A stretch of DNA of 64,000 bases, from NCBI GenBank assembly GCA_965217585.1, contig OZ244561.1:1536001-1600000 (forward strand), given 5' to 3'. Numbering within the stretch: the stretch's first letter is position 1; the number at the start of each line of letters is the position of its first letter. The stretch comes from Candidatus Latescibacterota bacterium. GTDB taxonomy: Bacteria; Latescibacterota; UBA2968; UBA8231. A program made the translations under genes and the position numbers. Positions 1 to 12,164 of this stretch are shown here, in pieces. The notes beneath the pieces are model-generated. The model did no database searches, was not told the DNA's origin, and was given only the letters and a program-made list of their open reading frames with translations.

Positions 1-197
1 TGGGGGCTCAGTTTCGAGTTCTCGTGGTACAATTCGGCCACATGCGGCTTTGGTCTGACTTGTCGGTAGAGGTAATCCGAAGCCGCCGAGTGGCTCAGAT
101 CAATGCTGTGAGGAGAAGGTATAATCGGCGATTCCAGAAACATCTGGATGTGCTCCAAGAGGGGGTCTGGAGCGGTACGAAGAGATTCGACAGTCAT
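1..197 (-). CDS. SagB/ThcOx-like azoline dehydrogenase, N-terminal part (runs off the window edge)
   Basis: Manual translation of the minus strand from ATG 197 (GGAG SD upstream) gives MTVESLRTAPDPLLEHIQMFLESPIIPSPHSIDLSHSAASDYLYRQVRPKPHVAELYHENSKLSP, open to base 1. The ELYHENSK motif resembles the N-terminus of SagB-family proteins, and the gene lies directly downstream of the ThiF-like gene. Confidence 0.6.
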   Translation of the reverse strand, partial: MTVESLRTAPDPLLEHIQMFLESPIIPSPHSIDLSHSAASDYLYRQVRPKPHVAELYHENSKLSP

Positions 198-276
198 TTT
201 GCACTCCGTTCGGTAGTGTTATATCAGATTGACGAGACGCGCTTTGCTCTAGTCAGTCGCTACTTTTGCAAGAGGT

Positions 277-1389
277 TTAGAGAAACATGTGTCTATACCC
301 GTTGCGCATGTCAACAGATGTGGGAGACCTAGGTAGTTTCAGGATTTCTTCGTAATCGACATAGGGTTTTTCAAAATTAATGCGAAGGCATCGGCCTATC
401 AGGGAAGATTTTCCAGATAAAAGAAAAGACGAGGTGGTGCCTGCCACAAAACCGGCGGCTATGCTAGCGTAGGGTGGGAACGCAAATTGATGGCTGTAAA
501 GGCCATTCTTGCTCATTTCTTCTTTATAGGTATAGTACTCGCTGCGCTGGATGGACAAAGTAGCTTCCGATTGGATTTCGAATTCATTGTAGCAGCACGT
601 TTCTCCAGGTACATAAATAGGGCCGATGCAGGATTCACTGCCGTCTATAAATGCGGACATCCACGGTTTTTCGGCAGAAAGTGCAGCGAGATCGACGGTG
701 TGAAAGAGATGAGATGAGAACACTTCGGAGGTGGCGACGACGAAGTCTGAAGCACTAAACAGGCTTTCTAAGGCGTCTTGATTATGATAAGGTTCTTTGA
801 TCGCCTTGAGACTATCGTAACCGAGTTCTGACAGATGCGATCCCAGGCACTCGACATAAGGTCGTCCCTTTTCTATATAAGTCGGGGGCAGGTTAAACTG
901 AGCCTGATCAACCGTCGTGTTCTCGATACGTCGGTCATCTAGAATTTGCATCTGGCCGATCCCAACTTTTACGAGTTCTTCCGCCACGCGACTGCCGAGA
1001 TAACCGGCACCTACGATGCCAATGCAGATGTTGTCGAATGCCTGGTTTCCGCCTACGACGGCATTCAAATAGCTTACGATAGGGCTTTCATCGGCCTGGG
1101 AGAGAAACCCTTGTGAGGCCAGAGTAGCGAGGAGTTCTTCTGCATCTTCAAACTCTTCTTCCCCAATCACTTTTTGCTCTTGGAGATCTTGCAGGGAAGC
1201 TGGAGACGCCAGACGACGAAGTACCCGACCCAGAAGGTGGGTTCTTCCCTCATCGCGGATCGTTTGGTTGAATTTGGATCTCATACCGTGCAGCACTAAG
1301 ATCTCGTCTTCGCCACAAAAAATGAACTTGAGTGAGGGATTGAGTACGAAGTGATGTTCAGTAACAATAGGTTCGGTCTTGGTTCCCAT
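277..1389 (-). CDS. TOMM/LAP cyclodehydratase partner (RRE + ThiF/E1-like, leader-peptide-binding protein)
   Basis: Start re-called at MGTKTE (AGAGG SD). N-terminal ~90-aa RRE-like region, Rossmann motif GIVGAGYLGS, and the GPIYVPGETCC motif typical of ocin-ThiF/SagC proteins. Confidence 0.8.
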   Translation of the reverse strand: MGTKTEPIVTEHHFVLNPSLKFIFCGEDEILVLHGMRSKFNQTIRDEGRTHLLGRVLRRLASPASLQDLQEQKVIGEEEFEDAEELLATLASQGFLSQADESPIVSYLNAVVGGNQAFDNICIGIVGAGYLGSRVAEELVKVGIGQMQILDDRRIENTTVDQAQFNLPPTYIEKGRPYVECLGSHLSELGYDSLKAIKEPYHNQDALESLFSASDFVVATSEVFSSHLFHTVDLAALSAEKPWMSAFIDGSESCIGPIYVPGETCCYNEFEIQSEATLSIQRSEYYTYKEEMSKNGLYSHQFAFPPYASIAAGFVAGTTSSFLLSGKSSLIGRCLRINFEKPYVDYEEILKLPRSPTSVDMRNGYRHMFL

Positions 1390-1503
1390 GGATATCCTCT
1401 TTTTTGGTTTTTGTGATTTAGCCGACAATAGTTGATCGCGAACTAATGATACAACGTACACGGTATAAATCAGGGCATTCAATTCATCTCAAGTAGTTAA
1501 GTA

Positions 1504-1642
1504 CCTGCCCGCATCAGGCACAGACTGCTACGGGCAGGGCAATGCTGAATACCGTTTGGGCTCAAAATAGCCTCAGCCGTGATAAGATGCTACTACGATG
1601 ATGTGCAATGGTAGCTCTTATCTTTTACCCAAACAGTGTTCA
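1504..1642 (-). promoter_or_regulatory. Structured 3' UTR/intergenic RNA between precursor and enzyme genes
   Basis: Nested inverted repeats 1546-1560/1628-1642 and 1581-1593/1611-1622, followed by a GC-rich hairpin 1504-1513/1529-1538. Confidence 0.55.
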
Positions 1643-1649
1643 ATAGGAC

Positions 1650-1763
1650 TCACATGAGAGGTATGATGAGGCAGCAATTGCAGTTGCAGCAGCAGCCGCC
1701 ACCGCCTCTCTTTGCCGGCGACATATAGCCATCAAAAGGCTTAGATACGATTGTGAGCTTCAT
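1650..1763 (-). CDS. Cys-rich RiPP precursor peptide (37 aa), streptolysin S-like architecture
   Basis: MKLTIVSKPFDGYMSPAKRGGGGCCCNCNCCLIIPLM. AAAGGAGA SD lies 7 nt upstream of ATG 1763. Gly run followed by 6 Cys in 8 residues; gene sits upstream of the ThiF-like and SagB-like genes. Confidence 0.8.
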   Translation of the reverse strand: MKLTIVSKPFDGYMSPAKRGGGGCCCNCNCCLIIPLM

Positions 1764-1830
1764 CTTGCATTCTCCTTTGTTAAGAGTCAGCCATTTGTTT
1801 TGTAGCCGGTTGAAATGCGACACAGCAGCA

Positions 1831-1865
1831 ATGGAAGCAACAGCCGGCCGCTCTGTTGCTTCCAT
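1831..1865. repeat. Perfect 13-bp inverted repeat upstream of the precursor gene
   Basis: ATGGAAGCAACAG (1831-1843) / CTGTTGCTTCCAT (1853-1865), 9-nt loop. Confidence 0.8.
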
Positions 1866-2140
1866 GTTTTAGATACTGCTGATGGTTTGAAGCACGACTG
1901 AGGCCTCAGCGGGAACAAAAGCGAAAGACGTGCCAAGAAGCACGCCAGATAAACTAAGCCGTCGCTGGTATTCGCTAAGTCCCTGCAATTAGGCAGTTTA
2001 TCAACATAGACGGATTGTGGCCGCAGCCTCGGCTCCAAGCGGGCGATAAGCCTGGACGTATCGCCTCCGCAACACCACCGTTGCCCAAGAGATACAGAAA
2101 AAGCAGCTAAGGAACCGCTGCTGCCCGCACCCGCATTTGA

Positions 2141-2169
2141 TTGACAACTGCATTTATGTTCACTATATT
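2141..2169 (+). promoter_or_regulatory. sigma70-type promoter upstream of parE
   Basis: TTGACA (2141-2146), 17-nt spacer, TATATT (2164-2169). Confidence 0.65.
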
Positions 2170-2339
2170 GAAAAGACGGAGAATTTCTTAAATTAGCAGT
2201 CGCACCAAGGAGAGCGGCCCCCCTTCCTGCTCTCCTCCGATGCCCCTGCTTTTTTCCTGCATTTTAAGCGCTCCCATTTGTCCGCCAGCCGCCTACCTCC
2301 CCCACTGAGGCATCGCGGCACTTCTACTATAGACCACTT

Positions 2340-4172
2340 ATGGAAGCAATGGCTAAGACTCTGACCAACGGCCACGCCAACGGCAAGGCCACGTACGACG
2401 AAAGCAAGATCAAAACCCTCTCTTCGCTCGAGCACATCCGCCTGCGGACCGGCATGTACATCGGCCGCCTCGGCTCGGGCACCGATCCCGACGACGGCAT
2501 CTACATATTGCTCAAAGAGGTCGTCGACAATGCAGTCGATGAGTTCATCATGGGCTGTGGCAAGCAGATCGATGTCGAGATCGACCAAGGGCTAGTCCGA
2601 GTCCGCGACTACGGCCGCGGCATTCCCCTCGGCAAATTAGTCGAGTGCGTCTCGGTCATCAACACCGGAGCCAAATACAACGACGACGTCTTCCAGTTCA
2701 GCGTGGGGCTCAACGGCGTCGGCACCAAAGCCGTCAACGCGCTTTCGGCCCACTTCGTTGTCCGCTCCTACCGAGACGGCCGGTGCGCCGAAGTGCTCTT
2801 TGAGCGTGGCGAGCTGAAAAAGCAAAAGAAAAGCCGAGCGCCCAATGCGCCCGACGGCACGTACGTCGAGTTTTCGCCCGATCCGGTCATCTTCGGCGAA
2901 TACGCCTTCAACCACGAGTTCGTCGAGCGCCGGATGTGGAACTACGCCTGCCTCAACCGAGGTCTGCGCCTGTACTTCAACCGCCAAAAATTCGAGTCCA
3001 AACAGGGCCTGCTCGACCTCCTCAAAAGCGAGGCCGGCAGCTCGGTTCTCTACCCGCCCGCTTACCACAAAGGCCAGTACCTCGAATTTGCCTTCACCCA
3101 CGTCGATAGCTACGGAGAGTCCTATCGCTCTTTTGTCAACGGCCAGTACACGGCCGACGGCGGTACCCACCAGAGCGCGTTCCGCGAGGGCGTGCTCAAG
3201 GGCGTCAACGAATTTTACAAGAAAACCTTCAACGGCGTCGATGTCCGCGACGGAGCCTTTGGCGTCGTCTCCGTCAAGGTCAAGGAACCGGTTTTCGAGT
3301 CGCAGACCAAAAACAAGCTGGGCAATACCGACATCCGTGGCTGGATCGTCAACGAGACCCGCGAGGCCATCGTCGACTTCCTCCACAAAAACCGGGAGAC
3401 CGCGCAAAAGCTCGAAGCGCGTATCGTCCACAACGAAAAGCTGCGCAAGGAGCTAAACGCGGTTAAAAAGGAAGCCAAGGAAGCCGCTCGCCGCATCGAG
3501 ATCAAAATTCCCCAGCTCAAGGACTGCAAGTACCACAAAGGCGACAAGAAGCGCGGCGAGGAATCGACGATCTTCCTCGCCGAGGGGCAGTCGGCCGCTG
3601 GCTCGATCGTCTCCTCGCGCGACCCGGAGACCCAAGCCATCTTCACCCTCAAAGGCATGCCGCAAAACCTCTTTGGCAAAACCCGCGCCTCCATCTACAA
3701 AAACGAAGAGCTCTATAATATGATGATGGCTCTCGGGATCGAAGAAGACATCGACAACTTGCGCTACAACCAAGTCGTCATGGCTACCGACGCGGATGTT
3801 GACGGCTTCCACATCCGCAATATCCTGATGACCTTCTTCCTCACCTATTTCGAAGAGCTAATCACCTCGGGCCATGTCTATATACTCGAGACGCCGCTCT
3901 TTCGGGTCCGCAACAAACAAGAGACCCACTACTGCTACAATGAGCGCGAGCGCCAACGCGCCGCAAAGAAGCTCAAGGGTACCGCGGAAATCACCCGCTT
4001 CAAGGGCCTTGGCGAGATTTCCCCCAGGGAGTTTGGACAGTTTATCAACGGCGACATGCGGCTGGTCAAAGTCGGCGTCCGCTCACTTGCCACCGTCCCC
4101 GAAACCCTCTCCTTCTACATGGGCAAGAACACCCCCGACCGCCGCGACTACATTATGGAGCATCTAGTCTAA
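2340..4172 (+). CDS. parE: DNA topoisomerase IV subunit B (type IIA topoisomerase B subunit)
   Basis: EHIRLRTGMYIG, EVVDNAVDE, GLNGVGTKAVNALS GHKL motifs; TOPRIM motifs AEGQSA and DADVDG; RFKGLGEI. Alternative start at 2349. Confidence 0.9.
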   Translation: MEAMAKTLTNGHANGKATYDESKIKTLSSLEHIRLRTGMYIGRLGSGTDPDDGIYILLKEVVDNAVDEFIMGCGKQIDVEIDQGLVRVRDYGRGIPLGKLVECVSVINTGAKYNDDVFQFSVGLNGVGTKAVNALSAHFVVRSYRDGRCAEVLFERGELKKQKKSRAPNAPDGTYVEFSPDPVIFGEYAFNHEFVERRMWNYACLNRGLRLYFNRQKFESKQGLLDLLKSEAGSSVLYPPAYHKGQYLEFAFTHVDSYGESYRSFVNGQYTADGGTHQSAFREGVLKGVNEFYKKTFNGVDVRDGAFGVVSVKVKEPVFESQTKNKLGNTDIRGWIVNETREAIVDFLHKNRETAQKLEARIVHNEKLRKELNAVKKEAKEAARRIEIKIPQLKDCKYHKGDKKRGEESTIFLAEGQSAAGSIVSSRDPETQAIFTLKGMPQNLFGKTRASIYKNEELYNMMMALGIEEDIDNLRYNQVVMATDADVDGFHIRNILMTFFLTYFEELITSGHVYILETPLFRVRNKQETHYCYNERERQRAAKKLKGTAEITRFKGLGEISPREFGQFINGDMRLVKVGVRSLATVPETLSFYMGKNTPDRRDYIMEHLV

Positions 4173-6061
4173 TGGCCTATATCGACAGTCTCTACGACAA
4201 CTACTTCCTCGAATACGCCTCCTACTACATCAAAGACCGCGCGATTCCGCACATCGACGACGGACTTAAACCCGTCCAGCGCCGCATCCTCTACGCCCTA
4301 CAGCAGATTGACGACGGCAAGTTCCACAAGGTCGCCAATGTAGTCGGCCAAACCATGCAGTACCACCCGCACGGCGACCAGTCGATCTACGGTGCCTTAG
4401 TCGTCCTCGCAAACAAGGACCTTTTTATCGAGAAACAGGGCAATTTCGGCAATATCCACACGGGAGACGACGCCGCTGCCGCGCGCTACATCGAGTGCCG
4501 CCTCACGCCCTTGGCCAAGGAAACCCTCTTCAACAAATCGCTTACCTCATACGTTTCCTCTTACGACGGACGCAACGAGGAGCCTGTGGTTTTTCCCGCC
4601 AAGCTCCCGGTGCTCCTAGCCCAAGGGGCCGAGGGCATTGCCGTCGGCATGGCTACCAAGATATTGTCGCACAACCTCATCGAGCTCCTAGAAGCCCAAG
4701 TCGCTTACCTACAGGATCGGCCCTTTACCATTCGCCCGGATTTTCCCACCGGCGGGCTTGCCGACCTCTCGGCGTACAACGACGGCAATGGCAAAGTCTT
4801 AGTCCGCGCCCGGCTCGACACCTCCGACCCCAAGCGCATCGTCATCCGCGAGATTCCCTTTGGCACCACCACCGAACAACTCATTGGTTCCATAGAAGAC
4901 GCCGCACGCAAAAACAAAATCAAGATCGGCACCATCTCCGACTACACCGCCGAAAAAGTCGAAATCGAGATTAAGCTGCCGCGCGGCACCTATACCGAGG
5001 AGGTCGTGGATGCACTCTACGCCTTCACCGACTGCGAGCTGTCTATTTCGGCCAACCTGATGCTGATCAACGAGCATGATCGCCCCCAAGTCAGGAGCGC
5101 CACTGAAGTTCTGCAGCACAACGTCGATCGCCTCGTCGATATCCTCAAGGCCGAGCTCCATCTCGAAGCCGAGCAACTCAACGACAGGCTTCACGCCAAG
5201 ACCCTAGAACAGATTTTTATCGAAAACCGCATCTATAAGGCCATTGAGGAGCAGACCTCCACGGCCGAAGTCGACTTGGCAGTGCGCACCGGGCTTTGGC
5301 CTTTTGCCCCTCAGCTCAAACGCGATATCACCGACGACGATATCGAGACCCTGCTCAAGATCCCGATCCGCCGCATCTCGCGCTACGACATCAATCGCGC
5401 TCAAGAAGAGATGAAGGAGATCCGCGCCCGGCTGCGCCAGATCAAGAAGCATCTGGATAGCATTATCCCCTATGCCATCGCCTTTATCGAGGGTCTCGTC
5501 GACAAATACCGCGACCAATTCCCGCGCCGCACCGAAATCGTGGAAATCAAAAGAGTCGATGCGCGCTCGGCGGCCAACCGCAACCTCAAGCTCTGCTACG
5601 ACAAAAAGACCGGCTATCTCGGCCACCAAATCAACGGCACCTTCCTCTTCGACGTGTCGCTCTACGACTCTGTGCTCGCCATCCGCAAGGACGGCACCTA
5701 CTCGGTCATCCAAGTGCCGGACAAACTCTTCGTCGGCAAGGGCTTGCTCCACTGCGGCTTGGTGGACAAAGACCTAATTTTCAGCATCGTCTATAAGGAC
5801 AAGGCCGGTATCTCCTACATCAAGCGTTGCACAATTGACAAGTTCATCTTAGGCCGCAGCTACGATCTCGTGCCCGCCGAGTGCAAGCTGCTCAAGCTGA
5901 CCACCGACCCCGACAAAAAGATCGCTCTCGACTACAAGCCCAAGCCGCGCCTCCGCAAGCTCAACGAGGTCTTCCCCATCGGCCAATATCCCGTGCGCGG
6001 GCTCCGCGCCGGCGGCATCCGCCTGAGTACCAAAGAATTGGAAGGCTGCAAGCTGCTGTGA
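4172..6061 (+). CDS. parC: DNA topoisomerase IV subunit A
   Basis: [25 protein letters not shown] and AAARYIE (catalytic Tyr); TAATG coupling to parE. Confidence 0.9.
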
Positions 6062-6107
6062 GTGCAAGGTCCAGCTGGAATACGAGCGCCCGCGCCCGGC
6101 CTAATGG

Positions 6108-6752
6108 CTATCCAAGCCCGGCCAGCCACTCGCGCATCGCGCCTGGGTCCTCTTTGAACATCAGCGAGCCAGGGACGATATAGTCGGCACCGGCTCGCGC
6201 GATCTGCGGCACGGTGTGGCGGCGAATCCCGCCATCGGCCTCCACCACTGTCGCCAAGCCGCGCCGGTCGATCTCGTCTCTAGCCCGGCGGATCCTGTCG
6301 GGTGCCTGCGGGTCCATATCGGCTCCCTTGATCCCAGCAGCCGTATTCATCAGCGTCAACACATCCAATAACGGCCAACAGGGATCGAGTAGGTCGAGAT
6401 CCTCTTCCAGCAAGAGCGAGACCCCAGCCTGAAGTCCCCTTGCCTTGATCGCCTCCAGCACGGCACCCGGATCAGCGGCCGAGTCAAAGCAGAAAATGAT
6501 GGCGTCGGCACCCGCCTCGGCAAAGGGGTTGATCCACGCGGCCGGGTCGGTGGTCATCAGGTGCATTTCAAAGGGTAGGTCCGTATGCGGCCGCAGTGCC
6601 GCCACCAGATCTGGGAAGAACAGCATAGTCGGCGCATAATGGCCATCGGCCACGTCGAGATGGAAGCGCTCCGAATAGGGTGCGACGCGCCGGATATCAG
6701 CCGCGAGATTGGCCAAGTCGGCCGACCACAGGGAAGTCGCGCACTTGAGCAT
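6108..6752 (-). CDS. rpe: Ribulose-phosphate 3-epimerase family protein
   Basis: SLWSAD, FHLDVADGHY, EMHLM and ADGGI motifs; start re-called at MLKC. Confidence 0.8.
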   Translation of the reverse strand: MLKCATSLWSADLANLAADIRRVAPYSERFHLDVADGHYAPTMLFFPDLVAALRPHTDLPFEMHLMTTDPAAWINPFAEAGADAIIFCFDSAADPGAVLEAIKARGLQAGVSLLLEEDLDLLDPCWPLLDVLTLMNTAAGIKGADMDPQAPDRIRRARDEIDRRGLATVVEADGGIRRHTVPQIARAGADYIVPGSLMFKEDPGAMREWLAGLG

Positions 6753-6890
6753 TGTGGACCTCTGCAAATAAGTGGACGGGATAGAGGCGGCCAATATAGG
6801 GAGACCATCGTTTAGTGACCAATTTGCCTTTGTGCCAGAAGGCGCTGTTCTTTTTACCCGGCACTTACATCACAGCAAGGAAAACGCCCA

Positions 6891-8714
6891 ATGACCAATA
6901 CCCCTACAGCCATGGACTGGGACCTGACGAGCTATTTCGCTGAATTTGATGGCCCGGCCATGCAGCAATTCAAGGATGAACTGCAAAGAGATCTTGCGGC
7001 GGCACGTCAGCAAGCTGCCGCCCTAGCACCGCTCGCCGAGGACAATGCCGACGCTTGGGAGTCCATACTCCTCCTGACGGAAGGCCTGATCGACCGCCTC
7101 TCCCATCTGGGTTCCTATCTCGGTTGCCTTACTGCGGCGGACGCCCGCAATGAAGACTACGCCCGCGAGGAGGCGGCCTTTGCCCTGCTGGCGGCCGAGA
7201 GCGCAAAGCTCGATGTCGAACTCCTGCGTGCGCTCAAGGACGTCTCGGATGAATTTTTTGCCAAGTTCGCCCAACGGCCCGCCTTGGCCGACTGCATCCA
7301 CTTCCTCCACCGCCAGCGCGAAGACGCGCAGCGCACCATGAGCCCAGAGAAGGAGATGCTCTCTGCCGACCTCAGCGTCGATGGTCTCCACGCTTGGGGA
7401 CGCCTCTACGACTCGATCTCCGGCAAGCTCGAATTCGACATGGAATTTCCCGATGGTCGCACCGAGCGTCGCCCCATCTCGCAGCGCCGCGCCCTGATGG
7501 AAGACCCTGACCGCCGGGTCCGCCAAGCCGCCTTCGATGGCGGCAACCGGGCCTGGGAGAGCCTAGAAGATGTCGCCTGTGCCGCGCTCAACGCCATTTC
7601 GGGGACGCGGCTGACCCTCAACCATCATCGCGGCATTGATCACTTTCTCGATGTCGCCCTCTTCCAGGCATCGATTTCACCCAAGACCCTCGACGCGATG
7701 TTTGCGGCTATCGCCGAGCAAATCGAGCTGCCCCGACGCATCCTCGCCCTCAAGGCGCAGCTCATGGGCACCGAGGGCGTCGCTTGGTACGATCTGGGCG
7801 CACCGCTGCCGCTGCCCGACCAAGGGCAGCTTTCTTGGGAAGAGGGCACGGACCTCGTCACCCGCTCCTTTGCAGCGGCCTATCCACGCCTAGGCGAGTT
7901 CCTCGGCCAAGTCTGCGAACGCCAATGGATTGAGCACGCGCCCCGCCCTGGCAAGCGGCCCGGTGCCTTTTGCACTGGCTCGCTGTTGACCCGCGAGTCC
8001 CGCGTCTATATGACCTACAACGACACCCTCGGCGATGTCCTCACGCTCGCCCACGAGGTCGGCCATGCCTTCCACAGCTACATCATGCGCGACCTACGCA
8101 CCTACGCCCACTTCTACCCGATGACTCTGGCCGAGTCGGCCTCGACCTTCGGCGAAATGATCCTCACCGAGGGCATCCTCGCCGACTCTTCCTTCAGCCC
8201 GGCCCAAAAGGCCAGCGCCCTCCACCAAGAGATTGGCCACGGTGCGATCTTCCTGCTCGACATCCCCGTGCGCTACCAGTTCGAGAAAAAGCTCTACGAA
8301 GAACGCGCCGACGGCGAACTCACCGTCAGCCGTCTCAAAGAGCTAATGGTCGAAACCCAGCGCGAAGTCTTCGGCGACGCGCTCGCACAGGGGGGTGAAG
8401 ACCCCTACTTCTGGGCCTCGAAACTCCACTTCTATATCACCGGCGTGACTTTCTACAACTTCCCTTACACCTTCGGCTTCCTACTCAGCCGCGGCCTGTA
8501 TTCCATGTTTAAACAAGAAGGGGCTGCCTTTCTTCCCCGCTACGAGGAATTCCTCCGCCTCACCGGCAGTGACACCGCCGAGGGCGTCGCCCGCCGGGCC
8601 TTGGGCCGCGACCTCGAAGATACCCAGTTCTGGACCGAGGCCATCCAGACTTTGGAAGCTCCGCTGGCCGAGTTAGAGAAATTGCTACCCGAGGTGCTGC
8701 CTGAGCATTCGTAA
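6891..8714 (+). CDS. pepF: M3B oligoendopeptidase F
   Basis: WDLT N-terminus, GKRPGAFC, TLAHEVGH zinc motif, AESAS, FYNFPYTFG. Confidence 0.9.
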   Translation: MTNTPTAMDWDLTSYFAEFDGPAMQQFKDELQRDLAAARQQAAALAPLAEDNADAWESILLLTEGLIDRLSHLGSYLGCLTAADARNEDYAREEAAFALLAAESAKLDVELLRALKDVSDEFFAKFAQRPALADCIHFLHRQREDAQRTMSPEKEMLSADLSVDGLHAWGRLYDSISGKLEFDMEFPDGRTERRPISQRRALMEDPDRRVRQAAFDGGNRAWESLEDVACAALNAISGTRLTLNHHRGIDHFLDVALFQASISPKTLDAMFAAIAEQIELPRRILALKAQLMGTEGVAWYDLGAPLPLPDQGQLSWEEGTDLVTRSFAAAYPRLGEFLGQVCERQWIEHAPRPGKRPGAFCTGSLLTRESRVYMTYNDTLGDVLTLAHEVGHAFHSYIMRDLRTYAHFYPMTLAESASTFGEMILTEGILADSSFSPAQKASALHQEIGHGAIFLLDIPVRYQFEKKLYEERADGELTVSRLKELMVETQREVFGDALAQGGEDPYFWASKLHFYITGVTFYNFPYTFGFLLSRGLYSMFKQEGAAFLPRYEEFLRLTGSDTAEGVARRALGRDLEDTQFWTEAIQTLEAPLAELEKLLPEVLPEHS

Positions 8715-8781
8715 GAAGCTGTCTACAAGCATTCAGTACAGACTCTTTTAGCTCCGGCCACCACAGCCGCAAAGGATCCTC

Positions 8782-9537
8782 ATGTTGCGCTTACTTCTAG
8801 TCTTCTTCTTTTGCATCGGCCTAGCCCACGCCGCCGACAACCCTCCGTCCCCCGGCTTCAATGCCGCCGATTCCGATCCCAAGGCTATAGCCCTAGCCGA
8901 CGAAGTCATGGCTGCGATGGGCGGCCGCGCCAACTGGGACGCCACTCGCTACATCACTTGGCGCTTTTTCGGTTTCCGCTTACATGTGTGGGACAAGTGG
9001 ACGGGGGACATTCGCTTCGAGCAAGGCGACCTGACGGTGCTGATGAACATCCACACTAAAGAGGGCCGCGCCTTCGCCGCTGGTGCGGAAATAAGCGATC
9101 CCGACACCCTTGCCGCCAAACTCGACCACGGCTACCGCGCCTGGATCAACGACTCGTACTGGCTGGTCATGCCCTACAAGCTCAAGGACACCGGCGTCAC
9201 CCTGCGCTACCGGGGCCTAGAAGCCACCCAAGACGACCACCCAGCCGAAGTACTGGAACTCACGTTCAAAGACGTCGGCGTCACCCCGCAGAACAAATAC
9301 GCGGTCTGGATCGACCAAGAATCGCGGCTAGTGACCCAATGGGCGTTCTACCGCGACGCCGCTGACGCCGAACCGCGCTTTACCGGCCCTTGGGCCAACT
9401 GGCAACGCCACGGATCGATTTTGCTCTCCGACGGTCGCGGCGAGCGCCAGCACACCGATGTCGCGGTCTTCGACGAACTGCCGCGCTCGGTCTTCACAAG
9501 CCCGGCACCTGCCGCATTACCCTTGCCTTCCGAGTAG
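8782..9537 (+). CDS. Secreted hypothetical protein
   Basis: N-terminal signal peptide; AMGG..W and WINDSYWLVMPYKL motifs; codon usage matches the neighbouring genes. Confidence 0.75.
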   Translation: MLRLLLVFFFCIGLAHAADNPPSPGFNAADSDPKAIALADEVMAAMGGRANWDATRYITWRFFGFRLHVWDKWTGDIRFEQGDLTVLMNIHTKEGRAFAAGAEISDPDTLAAKLDHGYRAWINDSYWLVMPYKLKDTGVTLRYRGLEATQDDHPAEVLELTFKDVGVTPQNKYAVWIDQESRLVTQWAFYRDAADAEPRFTGPWANWQRHGSILLSDGRGERQHTDVAVFDELPRSVFTSPAPAALPLPSE

Positions 9538-10780: not shown

Positions 10781-11626
10781 TCAGTTGCTCGAAAATTCGA
10801 TCAACTGCCCGCCGCACTCGTCTTTCATTTTTTCTAAAGCCCTGTTCCGCAACTGCCGCACGCGCTCGCGGGTGACGCCTATGGAATCGCCGATCTCTTC
10901 CAAGGTCTTGGGTGCGCTGTCGTCGAGGCCAAAATAAGCGCGGACGATCTGGGACTCGCGGGCATCGAGCACCTTCAGACAATCGGCCACAGCCGCGCGC
11001 ATTTCCCCGTCGACGAAGCGCTCGTGCGAGCTGGGTTCAGCCGAGACAAACGTCTGCGCAAACGTCATCTCGCCGTCGGCAAAGGCAGGGGCGTCTAAGG
11101 GCAAATCCGGCTGCCCCATCTCAAAGGCGTTGCGGATGCGCTCTGTCGAGAAATCGACGCAGGCGGCGATTTCCTCAACAGTCGGGGCGCGCCCTAGCTG
11201 CTGGGCAAGGAGCGCGGCCTCCTTTTCGACCTTCTGCCGATCGCTGACCCGACTCAGCGGCGGACGGGCAATTTTGCCGTGTTCGGCTAAGGCCCGGAGG
11301 ATGGCTTGGCGAATCCACCACACCGCATAGGTGATGAACTTAAAGCCGCGCGTCTCGTCAAAGCGCTGGACGGCTTCCAGCAGCCCGAGGTTGCCCTCGG
11401 AAATCAGCTCAATCAGCGAGAGGCCACAGTCCTGGTACTCGCGGGCGACGCGAACCACGAAGCGCAAATTGGCCTGTACCAGCGCCTGACGCGCCTCTTC
11501 GTCACCTGCTTTGGCGCACTTGAAGAGGGCAATTTCTTCCTCGCGACTGAGCGGCTCGGCATTTTTTATATCTCGCCAATAGAGATCGGTCGCCGAGTAC
11601 ATTGTTTCTCTATTTTGTACGTCCAT
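10781..11626 (-). CDS. RNA polymerase sigma factor, RpoD/RpoS-like (no region 1.1)
   Basis: ANLRFVV, EGNLGLLEAVQRFD, FITYAVWWIRQAI, and region 4 TLEEIG..GVTRERVRQ. Confidence 0.9.
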   Translation of the reverse strand: MDVQNRETMYSATDLYWRDIKNAEPLSREEEIALFKCAKAGDEEARQALVQANLRFVVRVAREYQDCGLSLIELISEGNLGLLEAVQRFDETRGFKFITYAVWWIRQAILRALAEHGKIARPPLSRVSDRQKVEKEAALLAQQLGRAPTVEEIAACVDFSTERIRNAFEMGQPDLPLDAPAFADGEMTFAQTFVSAEPSSHERFVDGEMRAAVADCLKVLDARESQIVRAYFGLDDSAPKTLEEIGDSIGVTRERVRQLRNRALEKMKDECGGQLIEFSSN

Positions 11627-11741
11627 TTCAGTCCCCAAAGTTTGCAGTGATCAACCTTTACGTTCACGTTAAGGTTTAAGATAGAATACTTAGTGAACAC
11701 GCGCAAATACAATCTTGTGACGCACCAAGACGGCCAAGTAT

Positions 11742-12164
11742 TCAATCCAAAGGCGTTCGGCGGCTCTTTTTTTTCTCGGAATGACGCTGCTTGCTGTCGA
11801 GGCGACGCGCTTGGGCGGCGCGGCTGGGCTTGGTTTTTTCGCGCTTGGGCGGCTTCTTGAGCGCCGCGGCGAGCAGGGCGGCCAGCTTGTTGAGGCAGTC
11901 GGCGCGATTGCGCCCCTGCGTGCGAAATCGCTCCGACTGGATCGAGAGAGCGCCGGTGCTGTTCAGCCGCACAGCGAGCTTCTCGGCAATCCGCTGGCGC
12001 TGCTCGTCGCTGAGCACCGCACTGTGGACAAAGTCAAACTGTAGTTCGACGGCGGTATTGAGCTTGTTGACGTTTTGTCCCCCCGGTCCAGAACTGCGGC
12101 GAAACTTGAAACGCAGTTCGGAAAACGGGATGGACAGAGAGGGCGAGACGTATAGGGTTTCCAT
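11742..12164 (-). CDS. arfB: Alternative ribosome rescue peptidyl-tRNA hydrolase ArfB
   Basis: RSSGPGGQNVNK (GGQ motif) and a basic C-terminal tail. Confidence 0.92.
   Translation of the reverse strand: METLYVSPSLSIPFSELRFKFRRSSGPGGQNVNKLNTAVELQFDFVHSAVLSDEQRQRIAEKLAVRLNSTGALSIQSERFRTQGRNRADCLNKLAALLAAALKKPPKREKTKPSRAAQARRLDSKQRHSEKKKSRRTPLD

Follow-up and report, generated by a model that had tools for sequence, protein, structure and literature searches.

Whether a run of minus-strand genes cut by the left edge of the analysed DNA encodes a peptide natural product, and of what kind, is the question raised by this locus. The DNA, from now on referred to as the window, is a 64,000-nucleotide stretch of a Candidatus Latescibacterota genome (GCA_965217585.1, contig OZ244561.1, positions 1,536,001 to 1,600,000; G000:C1:1536001-1600000, where G000 is the source genome). 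The original prediction, made from the window's letters, proposed a thiazole-containing peptide, ribosomally made and modified after translation (RiPP), encoded by three co-oriented minus-strand open reading frames (ORFs) in an AT-rich island. All three ORFs are found where they had been placed, and GC content is 0.45-0.51 over window positions 1-2200 and 0.55-0.64 further right. A 20 kb stretch fetched to the left (L001; window coordinates equal L001 coordinates minus 18000) shows that low GC persists for about 6.3 kb leftward of base 1. The cluster island spans about 8.3 kb, mostly left of base 1, with a GC content of 0.45-0.52 compared with 0.595 for the genome. We assign a probability of roughly 78% to the reading that it holds a complete linear azol(in)e-containing peptide (LAP) cluster of the thiazole/oxazole-modified microcin (TOMM) class, with streptolysin S-like architecture and kept by the genus as a low-GC island. 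The components by which such clusters are recognized are present: a YcaO protein, an E1-like C protein with a RiPP recognition element (RRE) visible at the fold level, a Cys-rich precursor with a conserved leader and a flavin mononucleotide (FMN)-type dehydrogenase. None of the three findings named beforehand as refuting the original prediction was obtained.

The precursor, MKLTIVSKPFDGYMSPAKRGGGGCCCNCNCCLIIPLM, was originally described as a 37-residue peptide with a strong Shine-Dalgarno (SD) sequence, and AGGAG indeed ends 8 nt ahead of its ATG. Mechanical ORF calling extends the frame to an ATG at 1865 (71 aa). This longer version was rejected as the true precursor, because the upstream stretch lies in other frames in orthologues, which identifies the 37-aa start as the conserved one. 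The gene is single-copy in the source genome, where the next-best match (E 0.026) contains a stop. Orthologues, located via the loci of neighbouring genes, amount to 26 precursors in 16 loci (15 fetched plus the source genome), each preceded by an SD sequence and all upstream of the C gene; eight loci carry one copy, six carry two and two carry three. The shared leader MKLRIVSKPFDGYMSPA (17 positions) is kept in all of them, with a mean pairwise identity of 0.83 over the first 17 residues and eight invariant positions (M1, K2, L3, I5, S7, F10, P16 and A17). Past residue 17, 24 of the 26 sequences are distinct. They start with a 4-22-residue spacer, go on to a block that contains 5-8 Cys and end in a tail of 0-9 residues; the hypervariable poly-Cys cores are 5-12 residues long and include CCCCCCCC, CCCCCHCHCC, CCSCSCSSCC and CCCCHCHC besides the source block CCCNCNCC. 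The initial description of a Cys-only core therefore holds for the source genome and not for the genus, where Ser, His and Asn occur in orthologous cores as well. A conserved leader joined to a core that is free to vary marks a real RiPP precursor family, and the combination of a hypervariable core with one to three copies per genome fits diversifying selection.

The rest of the gene set is equally well conserved. Of 24 other species genomes of the genus, 16 carry a YcaO orthologue (78-85% identity); among 16 genomes representing four further genera of the class, none does. Fifteen of these 16 loci were fetched, the exception being G020, in which the gene is split over two small contigs. All eight genes are present in the same order in 15/15 fetched loci at 70-92% identity, always with the precursor beside the ThiF-like C gene as the original prediction would have it, and the island is low in GC in every genus genome (0.424-0.477 compared with 0.554-0.576 for the adjacent receptor gene). 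It could be argued that the small ORF is a chance ORF or that the cluster is a decaying relic, and the 37-aa peptide has no match among curated families at E<=10; nothing further speaks for this idea. The recurrence of the whole set with its precursor in every orthologous locus fetched shows that it is not a chance assembly, the leader and its SD sequence are retained throughout, and the eight genes are intact in 16 genomes (source plus 15), with catalytic-type CPBP and ABC motifs, as we take these to be defined, in place. The conservation data effectively refute a chance ORF or relic, to which we give almost no weight.

On the minus strand, the gene order is precursor, C, B1, B2, ABC-2 permease, YcaO, CPBP protease and ABC ATPase with a TPR-like C-terminal domain (Table 1). 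GC contents of individual cluster genes range from 0.446 to 0.516, and GC at third codon positions (GC3) lies between 0.49 and 0.56 in the seven genes for enzymes and transporters, at 0.63 in the short precursor gene and at about 0.77 in neighbouring housekeeping genes. A YcaO gene, a protease and an ABC exporter had been named as genes to look for left of base 1, and all are there. The YcaO is the only one of the genome and lies 4 kb downstream in the same operon-like run. Its alignment to LynD spans ESVER and ELFERD, two acidic ExxER-type segments, and its terminal GPVPFP falls on the Pro-rich C-terminus of LynD. The CPBP protease carries EEILWR, FGMNH and HQVFN, and the ABC ATPase a Walker A motif (GPNGAGKT), a signature (LSGGE) and a Walker B motif (ILDEP). 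Here and below, ExxER, PxPxP, Lys-Tyr, RxSxR, the CPBP and ABC motifs and E1 NLxRQ are presumed to have the roles commonly ascribed to them.

Table 1 Features of the cluster and its RNA elements. Coordinates refer to the window or to the adjoining stretch L001.
Feature	Coordinates	Strand	Evidence
Precursor gene, 37 aa	window 1650-1763	-	ORF and SD sequence
Precursor parts: leader MKLTIVSKPFDGYMSPA, spacer KRGGGG, Cys block CCCNCNCC, tail LIIPLM	window 1650-1763	-	
C protein, 370 aa	window 277-1389	-	PF00899 (ThiF) and fold
B1, 267 aa	L001 17394-18197; first 65 codons = window 1-197	-	no Pfam match; TIGR03605 only at E 5e-4
B2, 314 aa	L001 16446-17390	-	TIGR03605 (SagB family) 143.4 bits (cut-off 78.4); PF00881 72.3 bits
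ABC-2 permease, 257 aa	L001 15634-16407	-	PF01061 78.3 bits
YcaO, 487 aa	L001 14161-15624	-	PF02624 159.3 bits (cut-off 25.7); TIGR03604 205.7 bits
CPBP/CaaX-like protease, 242 aa	L001 13416-14144	-	PF02517 67.5 bits
ABC ATPase with TPR-like C-terminal domain, 562 aa	L001 11740-13428	-	PF00005 106.8 bits
Imperfect hairpin, 5' untranslated region of first precursor copy, 59 nt	window 1823-1881	-	alignment of 16 loci and RNAalifold
GC-rich stem-loop CCTGCCCG...CGGGCAGG between last precursor and C gene	window 1504-1538	-	present in 16/16 loci

The C protein had been labelled RRE/ThiF-like, a label that is upheld at the fold level. Its ORF runs over 277-1482 (-) from a TTG, and the ATG at 1389 yields the 370-aa protein, close homologues being 369-372 aa long. 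It matches PF00899 with 51.1 bits (cut-off 28.1), and no RRE/PqqD domain was matched in family scans of the sequence. A profile of the family finds MccB (2.4e-17), PaaA (2.6e-8), TruD (1e-5) and LynD (0.002) among solved chains; McbB is absent from the 39 chains listed at E<=0.01. In the predicted model (mean predicted local distance difference test, pLDDT, 83.8), residues 14-92 form strands followed by three helices, after which comes an E1-like fold. Foldseek aligns this model over its full length, including the N-terminal peptide clamp, to MccB (4.5e-19 over 364 columns), LynD (1.1e-13), PaaA and TruD. With MccB and PaaA as nearest solved relatives and a Gly-rich loop (G124, G127, G129, G132) that, like D151 and R153, is invariant or nearly so in 21 homologues, C might be a working adenylating E1 enzyme that adds, for example, C-terminal activation or cyclisation to heterocyclisation by YcaO. 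We consider this improbable. The ENTNLTRQ segment of MccB, which we take to carry the phosphate-binding Arg of E1 enzymes, lacks a counterpart in the C family when aligned to MccB, thus making independent adenylation by C unlikely on sequence grounds; further, the protein is annotated by sources as a TOMM leader-binding or SagC-type protein, and YcaO already has ATP-site motifs of its own.

The third ORF, starting at 197 with an ELYHENSK motif, is present as noticed earlier. It leaves the window at its left edge with 65 aa visible (AELYHENSK being residues 54-62), and in the genome it is the 267-aa gene B1. The expectation that this protein is nitroreductase-like is borne out by its fold: Foldseek returns PDB 3EO7 as best match (4.7e-9), followed by the azoline oxidases McbC (3.9e-7), ThcOx and BmdC, and a 16-member B1 profile matches residues 146-236 of 3EO7 at 7.3e-11 and the second half of 3EO7 more weakly. 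The model has a pLDDT of 70.6, with residues 70-263 confident. It is, however, not B1 but the next gene, B2, that encodes the true SagB-family dehydrogenase, scoring well above the TIGR03605 cut-off as would be expected of an FMN-dependent azoline dehydrogenase. B2 matches residues 329-499 of 3EO7 (5e-34) and the azoline oxidases ThcOx, BmdC and, weakly, McbC. BLASTP detects no significant similarity between B1 and B2 (E 0.9), and their relation is visible only via 3EO7, the profile and the fold. B2 conserves R118-x-S120-x-R and W236-K237-Y238, while B1 conserves W194-R195-Y and E55, N60 and K62 of ELYHENSK.

B1 is the apparent partner subunit of B2 in structure prediction. The predicted complex scores 0.73, the best of three controls scoring 0.00; 58 of 80 complexes with solved structures attain that value, as do 2 of 110 pairs that are mismatched, counts that are only approximate here since custom alignments were used. 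Contact agreement between prediction runs is at least 58% and partner pLDDT at least 66. The modelled interface packs the central helices (B2 240-260 with B1 206-221) and places B1 53-64, the ELYHENSK segment, against B2 115/120. We read the dehydrogenase as probably a tandem enzyme split into two subunits, with a single canonical flavin site. B1 belongs to a large family for which Pfam has no model; it counts 1871 representatives at E<=0.001, of which 325 reach <=1e-10 and 79 reach <=1e-30. Among the best 150, nearly all are stand-alone proteins of 240-300 aa; two are long enough for a fusion (609 and 586 aa) and one is intermediate (412 aa).

Homologues of the C protein place the cluster in a wider family. 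Twenty public records hold 80-87% identical C proteins, 18 of them titled Candidatus Latescibacterota/Latescibacteria metagenome-assembled genomes (MAGs) and two with Gemmatimonadetes/-ota titles; a 64%-identical relative (L053) is also titled Gemmatimonadota. At 27-46% identity, record titles point to about ten other lineages: Thermoanaerobaculia, Acidobacteriota, Nostoc (a MAG, L055), Deltaproteobacteria, Nitrospira, Herpetosiphonaceae, Lysobacterales, Pseudoalteromonas shioyasakiensis, Rheinheimera riviphila, Egibacteraceae, Solirubrobacterales and Dormiibacterota. Loci with less than 70% C identity show the order C-B1-B2 in 15 of 16 cases and YcaO in 14 of 16, the exceptions being one 4.5-kb contig and one doubtful archaeal match. 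Cluster GC in these distant lineages matches that of the adjoining DNA, in contrast to the Latescibacterota genus. In 14/14 distant loci examined, C is preceded by a small ORF, each a Cys-rich precursor candidate, with a poly-Cys core in 13 of them. Leaders resemble MKL...EEKYDS..VVVAPGGW and end in an A/SPGG-type junction, usually APGGW, followed by cores such as CCCTCCHSWCHCH. Of eight precursors scanned, five match TIGR03602 (streptolysin S family TOMM toxin) below its cut-off of 35 bits, the best at 31.1 bits (E 1.6e-7), and two of the five also weakly match BorA; the source and L053 precursors had no match in the precursor family scan. The wider family is therefore streptolysin S-like at a distance, and by sequence the Latescibacterota leader end appears to have diverged further than those of its distant relatives. 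An extra ORF of about 220 aa was observed between YcaO and precursor in three Acidobacteriota/Thermoanaerobaculia loci (L054 3570-4223, L056 7927-8586 and L058 8002-8676), and has no counterpart in the Latescibacterota cluster.

From homology, we infer the following route for every step. The 37-aa precursor would be translated from its strong SD sequence, with the 3' stem-loop probably raising the precursor:enzyme ratio. The N-terminal RRE of C would bind the leader, MKLxIVSKPFxGYMSPA, whereupon YcaO and C would use ATP to cyclodehydrate core Cys residues to thiazolines. The B1/B2 flavin oxidase would then oxidize thiazolines to thiazoles, B2 supplying the canonical FMN site and B1 occupying the second place of the dimer as a diverged paralogue. 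The CPBP protease would cut off the leader, and the DrrAB-like ABC-2 transporter would export the product and probably protect the producer. In the source organism, the expected product is a short peptide bearing at most six thiazoles in CCCNCNCC and ending in a hydrophobic LIIPLM tail. Its role is most likely that of a membrane-active or otherwise antagonistic peptide directed at competitors or host cells, and this is the weakest link of our account.

A number of observations weigh against this account. Scores for C (TIGR03603, SagC family, 49.7 bits, cut-off 187.65) and for YcaO, the D protein (TIGR03604, SagD family, cut-off 219.25), stay below the curated cut-offs, so the cluster enzymes are not close to studied ones, and the precursor's failure to match any curated family counts here as well. 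At its C-terminal end, where the family consensus is LPRCPAC...GYRHTFL, the source C protein reads LPRSPTS; both Cys are lost, and with them a possible structural metal site may have been lost in the source genome. Residues 1-69 of B1, including ELYHENSK, are of low confidence when the protein is folded alone (pLDDT about 40). The B1/B2 complex score may merely mirror likeness to the nitroreductase dimers McbC and 3EO7; as such dimers have already been solved, it signifies likeness and not proof. Both conserved hairpins of the locus are nearly devoid of compensatory changes. Product chemistry and activity are predictions from homology, and the proposed cytolytic or antagonistic role derives solely from cluster architecture and the sub-threshold matches of distant relatives' precursors to hidden Markov models.

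With the same biosynthesis, the product could instead be a non-lytic antibiotic with an intracellular target, as is the case for microcin B17 (gyrase) or phazolicin (ribosome). The cores are much shorter than the cytolysin cores described in the consulted part of PMC4603692, the source core is interrupted by Asn, McbC appears among B1's matches by structure and B2's by sequence, and the producers are diderm, as for microcins. On the other hand, the distant precursors match the streptolysin S model and, weakly, BorA, no microcin precursor model being among their matches, and a CPBP protease together with an ABC-2 pump is the cytolysin cluster set according to the same part of PMC4603692. The island also lacks a resistance-type gene such as a pentapeptide repeat protein or an extra gyrase, the nearby GyrB/ParE-like genes being flank that is present in cluster-less G007 too. 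An intracellular target is thus, in our estimation, unlikely, though the likeliest of the alternatives, and a membrane-active or otherwise antagonistic peptide is preferred.

Beyond the ATPase gene lie a TonB-dependent receptor with a CarboxypepD_reg N-domain, which begins 6 nt past the ATPase stop on the same strand, and a signal-peptide TPR protein, presumed periplasmic (both within L001 8680-11733). The receptor adjoins the cluster in 15/15 genus loci and in L053, and the TPR protein is 41-42% identical to the C-terminal domain of the ATPase, a likeness that is seen where the best match of the TPR query is the ATPase gene itself (L025, L026, L028 and L053). This arrangement, together with several cores that alternate Cys and His (CCCCCHCHCC, CCCCHCHC), would suit a metal-binding thiazol(in)e/Cys/His-rich peptide that is made in the same way, exported by the ABC transporter and taken up again via the receptor. 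The receptor and TPR gene, however, persist in cluster-less G007, have a GC3 of 0.649 as opposed to that of the cluster enzyme and transporter genes, and a TonB-dependent receptor is found in 0/15 distant clusters. Further, a CarboxypepD_reg N-domain is typical of SusC-like nutrient receptors and not of siderophore receptors, and metal binding does not call for an FMN dehydrogenase that aromatises every ring. A metallophore or metal buffer is accordingly given little credence, about as little as a self-sufficient E1 activity of the C protein. As separate observations, about 1.1 kb is inserted between the ATPase gene and the receptor in L025, L026 and L028 (approximately 10880-12000), the parts of these three loci that were fetched showed no free TPR gene, and free-standing homologues of the TPR module occur inside the distant clusters L059, L062, L064 and L066.

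What else the position of the island can hold is shown by one genome of the genus. G007 (two contigs, 95% complete) lacks YcaO and keeps both flanks; the remaining genus genomes without a YcaO match are fragmented (210-770 contigs). Homology between G007 and the source genome ends at window 1881 on the right and, on the left, within the ATPase gene, 210 nt from its 3' end. Between these points, G007 holds a different low-GC island of 7.9 kb (GC 0.38-0.49; L077 = G007:C2:4360501-4370500, approximately 880-8990), encoding a transglutaminase/GT-like protein of 893 aa, a GT2-TPR protein of 856 aa, a C39 peptidase, a CPBP protease and a Yip1 protein. The 210-nt ATPase remnant suggests that the G007 island replaced an ancestral cluster, and the chromosomal slot looks like a site of island swapping. 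To the right of the island, and divergent from it, window 2340-6061 (+) encodes GyrB/ParE-like (610 aa) and GyrA/ParC-like (629 aa) proteins at normal GC. The GyrB/ParE-like neighbours were entertained as a means of self-resistance to the peptide and rejected, as they belong to a conserved flank with 87% DNA identity in G007.

Taken further, the data can be drawn together in a broader proposal, which we put forward tentatively and at somewhat less than even odds. It posits a phylum-spanning, hitherto uncharacterised LAP family defined by an MccB-like C protein, an obligate heterodimeric B1/B2 azoline oxidase with one canonical flavin site and APGGW-type leader ends. The Latescibacterota branch would have replaced the leader end, fused a TPR domain to the export ATPase and set diversifying short poly-thiazole 'warheads', one to three per genome, at an island-swapping slot, where they would serve as a fast-evolving weapon or host-interaction factor.

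Two RNA-level elements accompany the precursor genes. The 5' hairpin (outer stem CAGCAG/CTGCTG, inner stem ATGGAAGCAACAG/CTGTTGCTTCCAT) lies ahead of the first precursor in all 16 loci, and the 120 nt upstream of the precursor show 84% mean column identity across them. RNAalifold predicts 21 pairs, 17 in this hairpin and 4 in a separate small downstream stem, with a compensatory change in one of the 21; the hairpin is thus conserved in sequence, its structure being a prediction. For the GC-rich stem-loop, 13 pairs are predicted, of which the basal 10 are kept in 16/16 loci via C-G/U-G and U-G/U-A changes, and one pair is compensatory. With a single compensatory pair per hairpin, RNA structure is neither supported nor refuted. 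No T-run follows the stem-loop, which went unflagged in the intrinsic-terminator scan; by analogy with operons of other RiPPs, it is probably an attenuator or mRNA-stability element that favours the precursor transcript. The promoter and terminator scans gave counts at shuffled expectation (3 versus 2.2 and 2 versus 2.3) and flagged neither conserved hairpin, and an Rfam scan of the whole window returned 0 matches. Sequencing datasets listed for the locus are of DNA type, from 10 studies, with none of RNA type. In another frame, the conserved 5' region (window 1823-1900, minus strand) spells a Cys/His-rich string, GCCFHCCCV (GCCCHFCCV in orthologues), that looks like genuine cores, for example CCCCCHCHCC. 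Either an older precursor core has left its remains in one arm of the hairpin, or the string may simply follow from the TGC-rich stem; both are possibilities only.

The locus offers a testable natural-product pathway for a phylum without cultured producers, and a compact one at that, consisting of one 37-aa peptide and four enzymes that all lend themselves to heterologous expression. Across the genus, 24 different cores carried by one leader form a natural library, useful for studying how contiguous Cys are processed to contiguous thiazoles. The B1 family, with its 325 representative clusters at E<=1e-10, points to a two-subunit TOMM dehydrogenase, and 'hypothetical' ELYHENSK proteins beside SagB-type genes may be annotated as a predicted part of the oxidase.

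With respect to what has been described before, antiSMASH LAP regions have already been counted in Latescibacterota MAGs (PMC12993501), and the presence of a LAP cluster in the lineage is therefore not new; the anatomy of the cluster is not described in the consulted passages of that paper. Literature searches returned no description of the cluster, its leader, its cores or a split TOMM dehydrogenase. The consulted part of PMC4603692 (Cox et al. 2015) outlines a TOMM group from 11 varied species, in which the cyclodehydratase is discrete, the C protein is unique and the precursors are Gly-/Cys-rich; the group is called 'anabaenasin', a name found only there in the literature searched. By this group description, the 'anabaenasins' may be the wider family reported here, which includes the Nostoc MAG locus; a second dehydrogenase subunit is not mentioned for them in that part of the paper.

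Among individual components, the C protein is closest, of solved proteins, by sequence and full-length fold, including the peptide clamp, to MccB of microcin C7 and PaaA of pantocin A. These are stand-alone adenylating enzymes, whereas C adjoins a YcaO and has no equivalent of the NLTRQ stretch of MccB. The cluster also resembles the microcin B17 synthetase McbBCD (PDB 6GOS/6GRH) in combining three activities, those of an E1-like leader-binding protein, a YcaO and an azoline oxidase of nitroreductase fold; McbC is a top structural match of B1 and a weak sequence match of B2. It differs in that McbB is not among the sequence matches of C and in that no McbG-like immunity gene is found in the cluster. 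McbC, a single protein, works in the McbBCD complex as a homodimer, whereas the pairing predicted here is between two diverged paralogues. The halves of the 511-aa tandem 'putative nitroreductase' Ava_2154 from Anabaena variabilis (PDB 3EO7, uncharacterised) correspond to B1 and B2, with the difference that 3EO7 is one fused polypeptide and B1 and B2 are separate genes. The FMN domain of the azoline oxidase ThcOx has been noted to resemble 3EO7 (PMC5108345, as far as consulted).

Streptolysin S offers the most extensive comparison. Both systems have a small precursor in which a Gly run stands ahead of a Cys run, and both have an element 3' of the precursor gene, a terminator after sagA and a stem-loop here. 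Like the present cluster, those of streptolysin S type (sagA-I) encode C and D as discrete proteins, along with an FMN dehydrogenase, a protease of the CaaX-like (CPBP) type and an ABC transporter; in the consulted part of PMC4603692, the cytolysin group is characterized by the same components (ABC transporters in the plural) and by a core in which Gly precedes at least 10 contiguous heterocyclisable residues. The source precursor departs from this core rule, with GGGG followed by CCCNCNCC and at most 3 contiguous heterocyclisable residues; the genus maximum is 8 contiguous Cys, or 11 with preceding Thr/Ser in one L021 copy. Its leader is unrelated to that of the streptolysin S family, the precursor has no TIGR03602 match at E<=10, and C and D miss the SagC and SagD family cut-offs. 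Further, the dehydrogenase is divided over two genes, the ATPase bears a TPR domain, and the host is a Latescibacterota MAG lineage rather than one of the Firmicutes or Spirochaetes that host streptolysin S-type clusters. By its sequences, then, the cluster has a streptolysin S-like gene set but falls outside the streptolysin S family.

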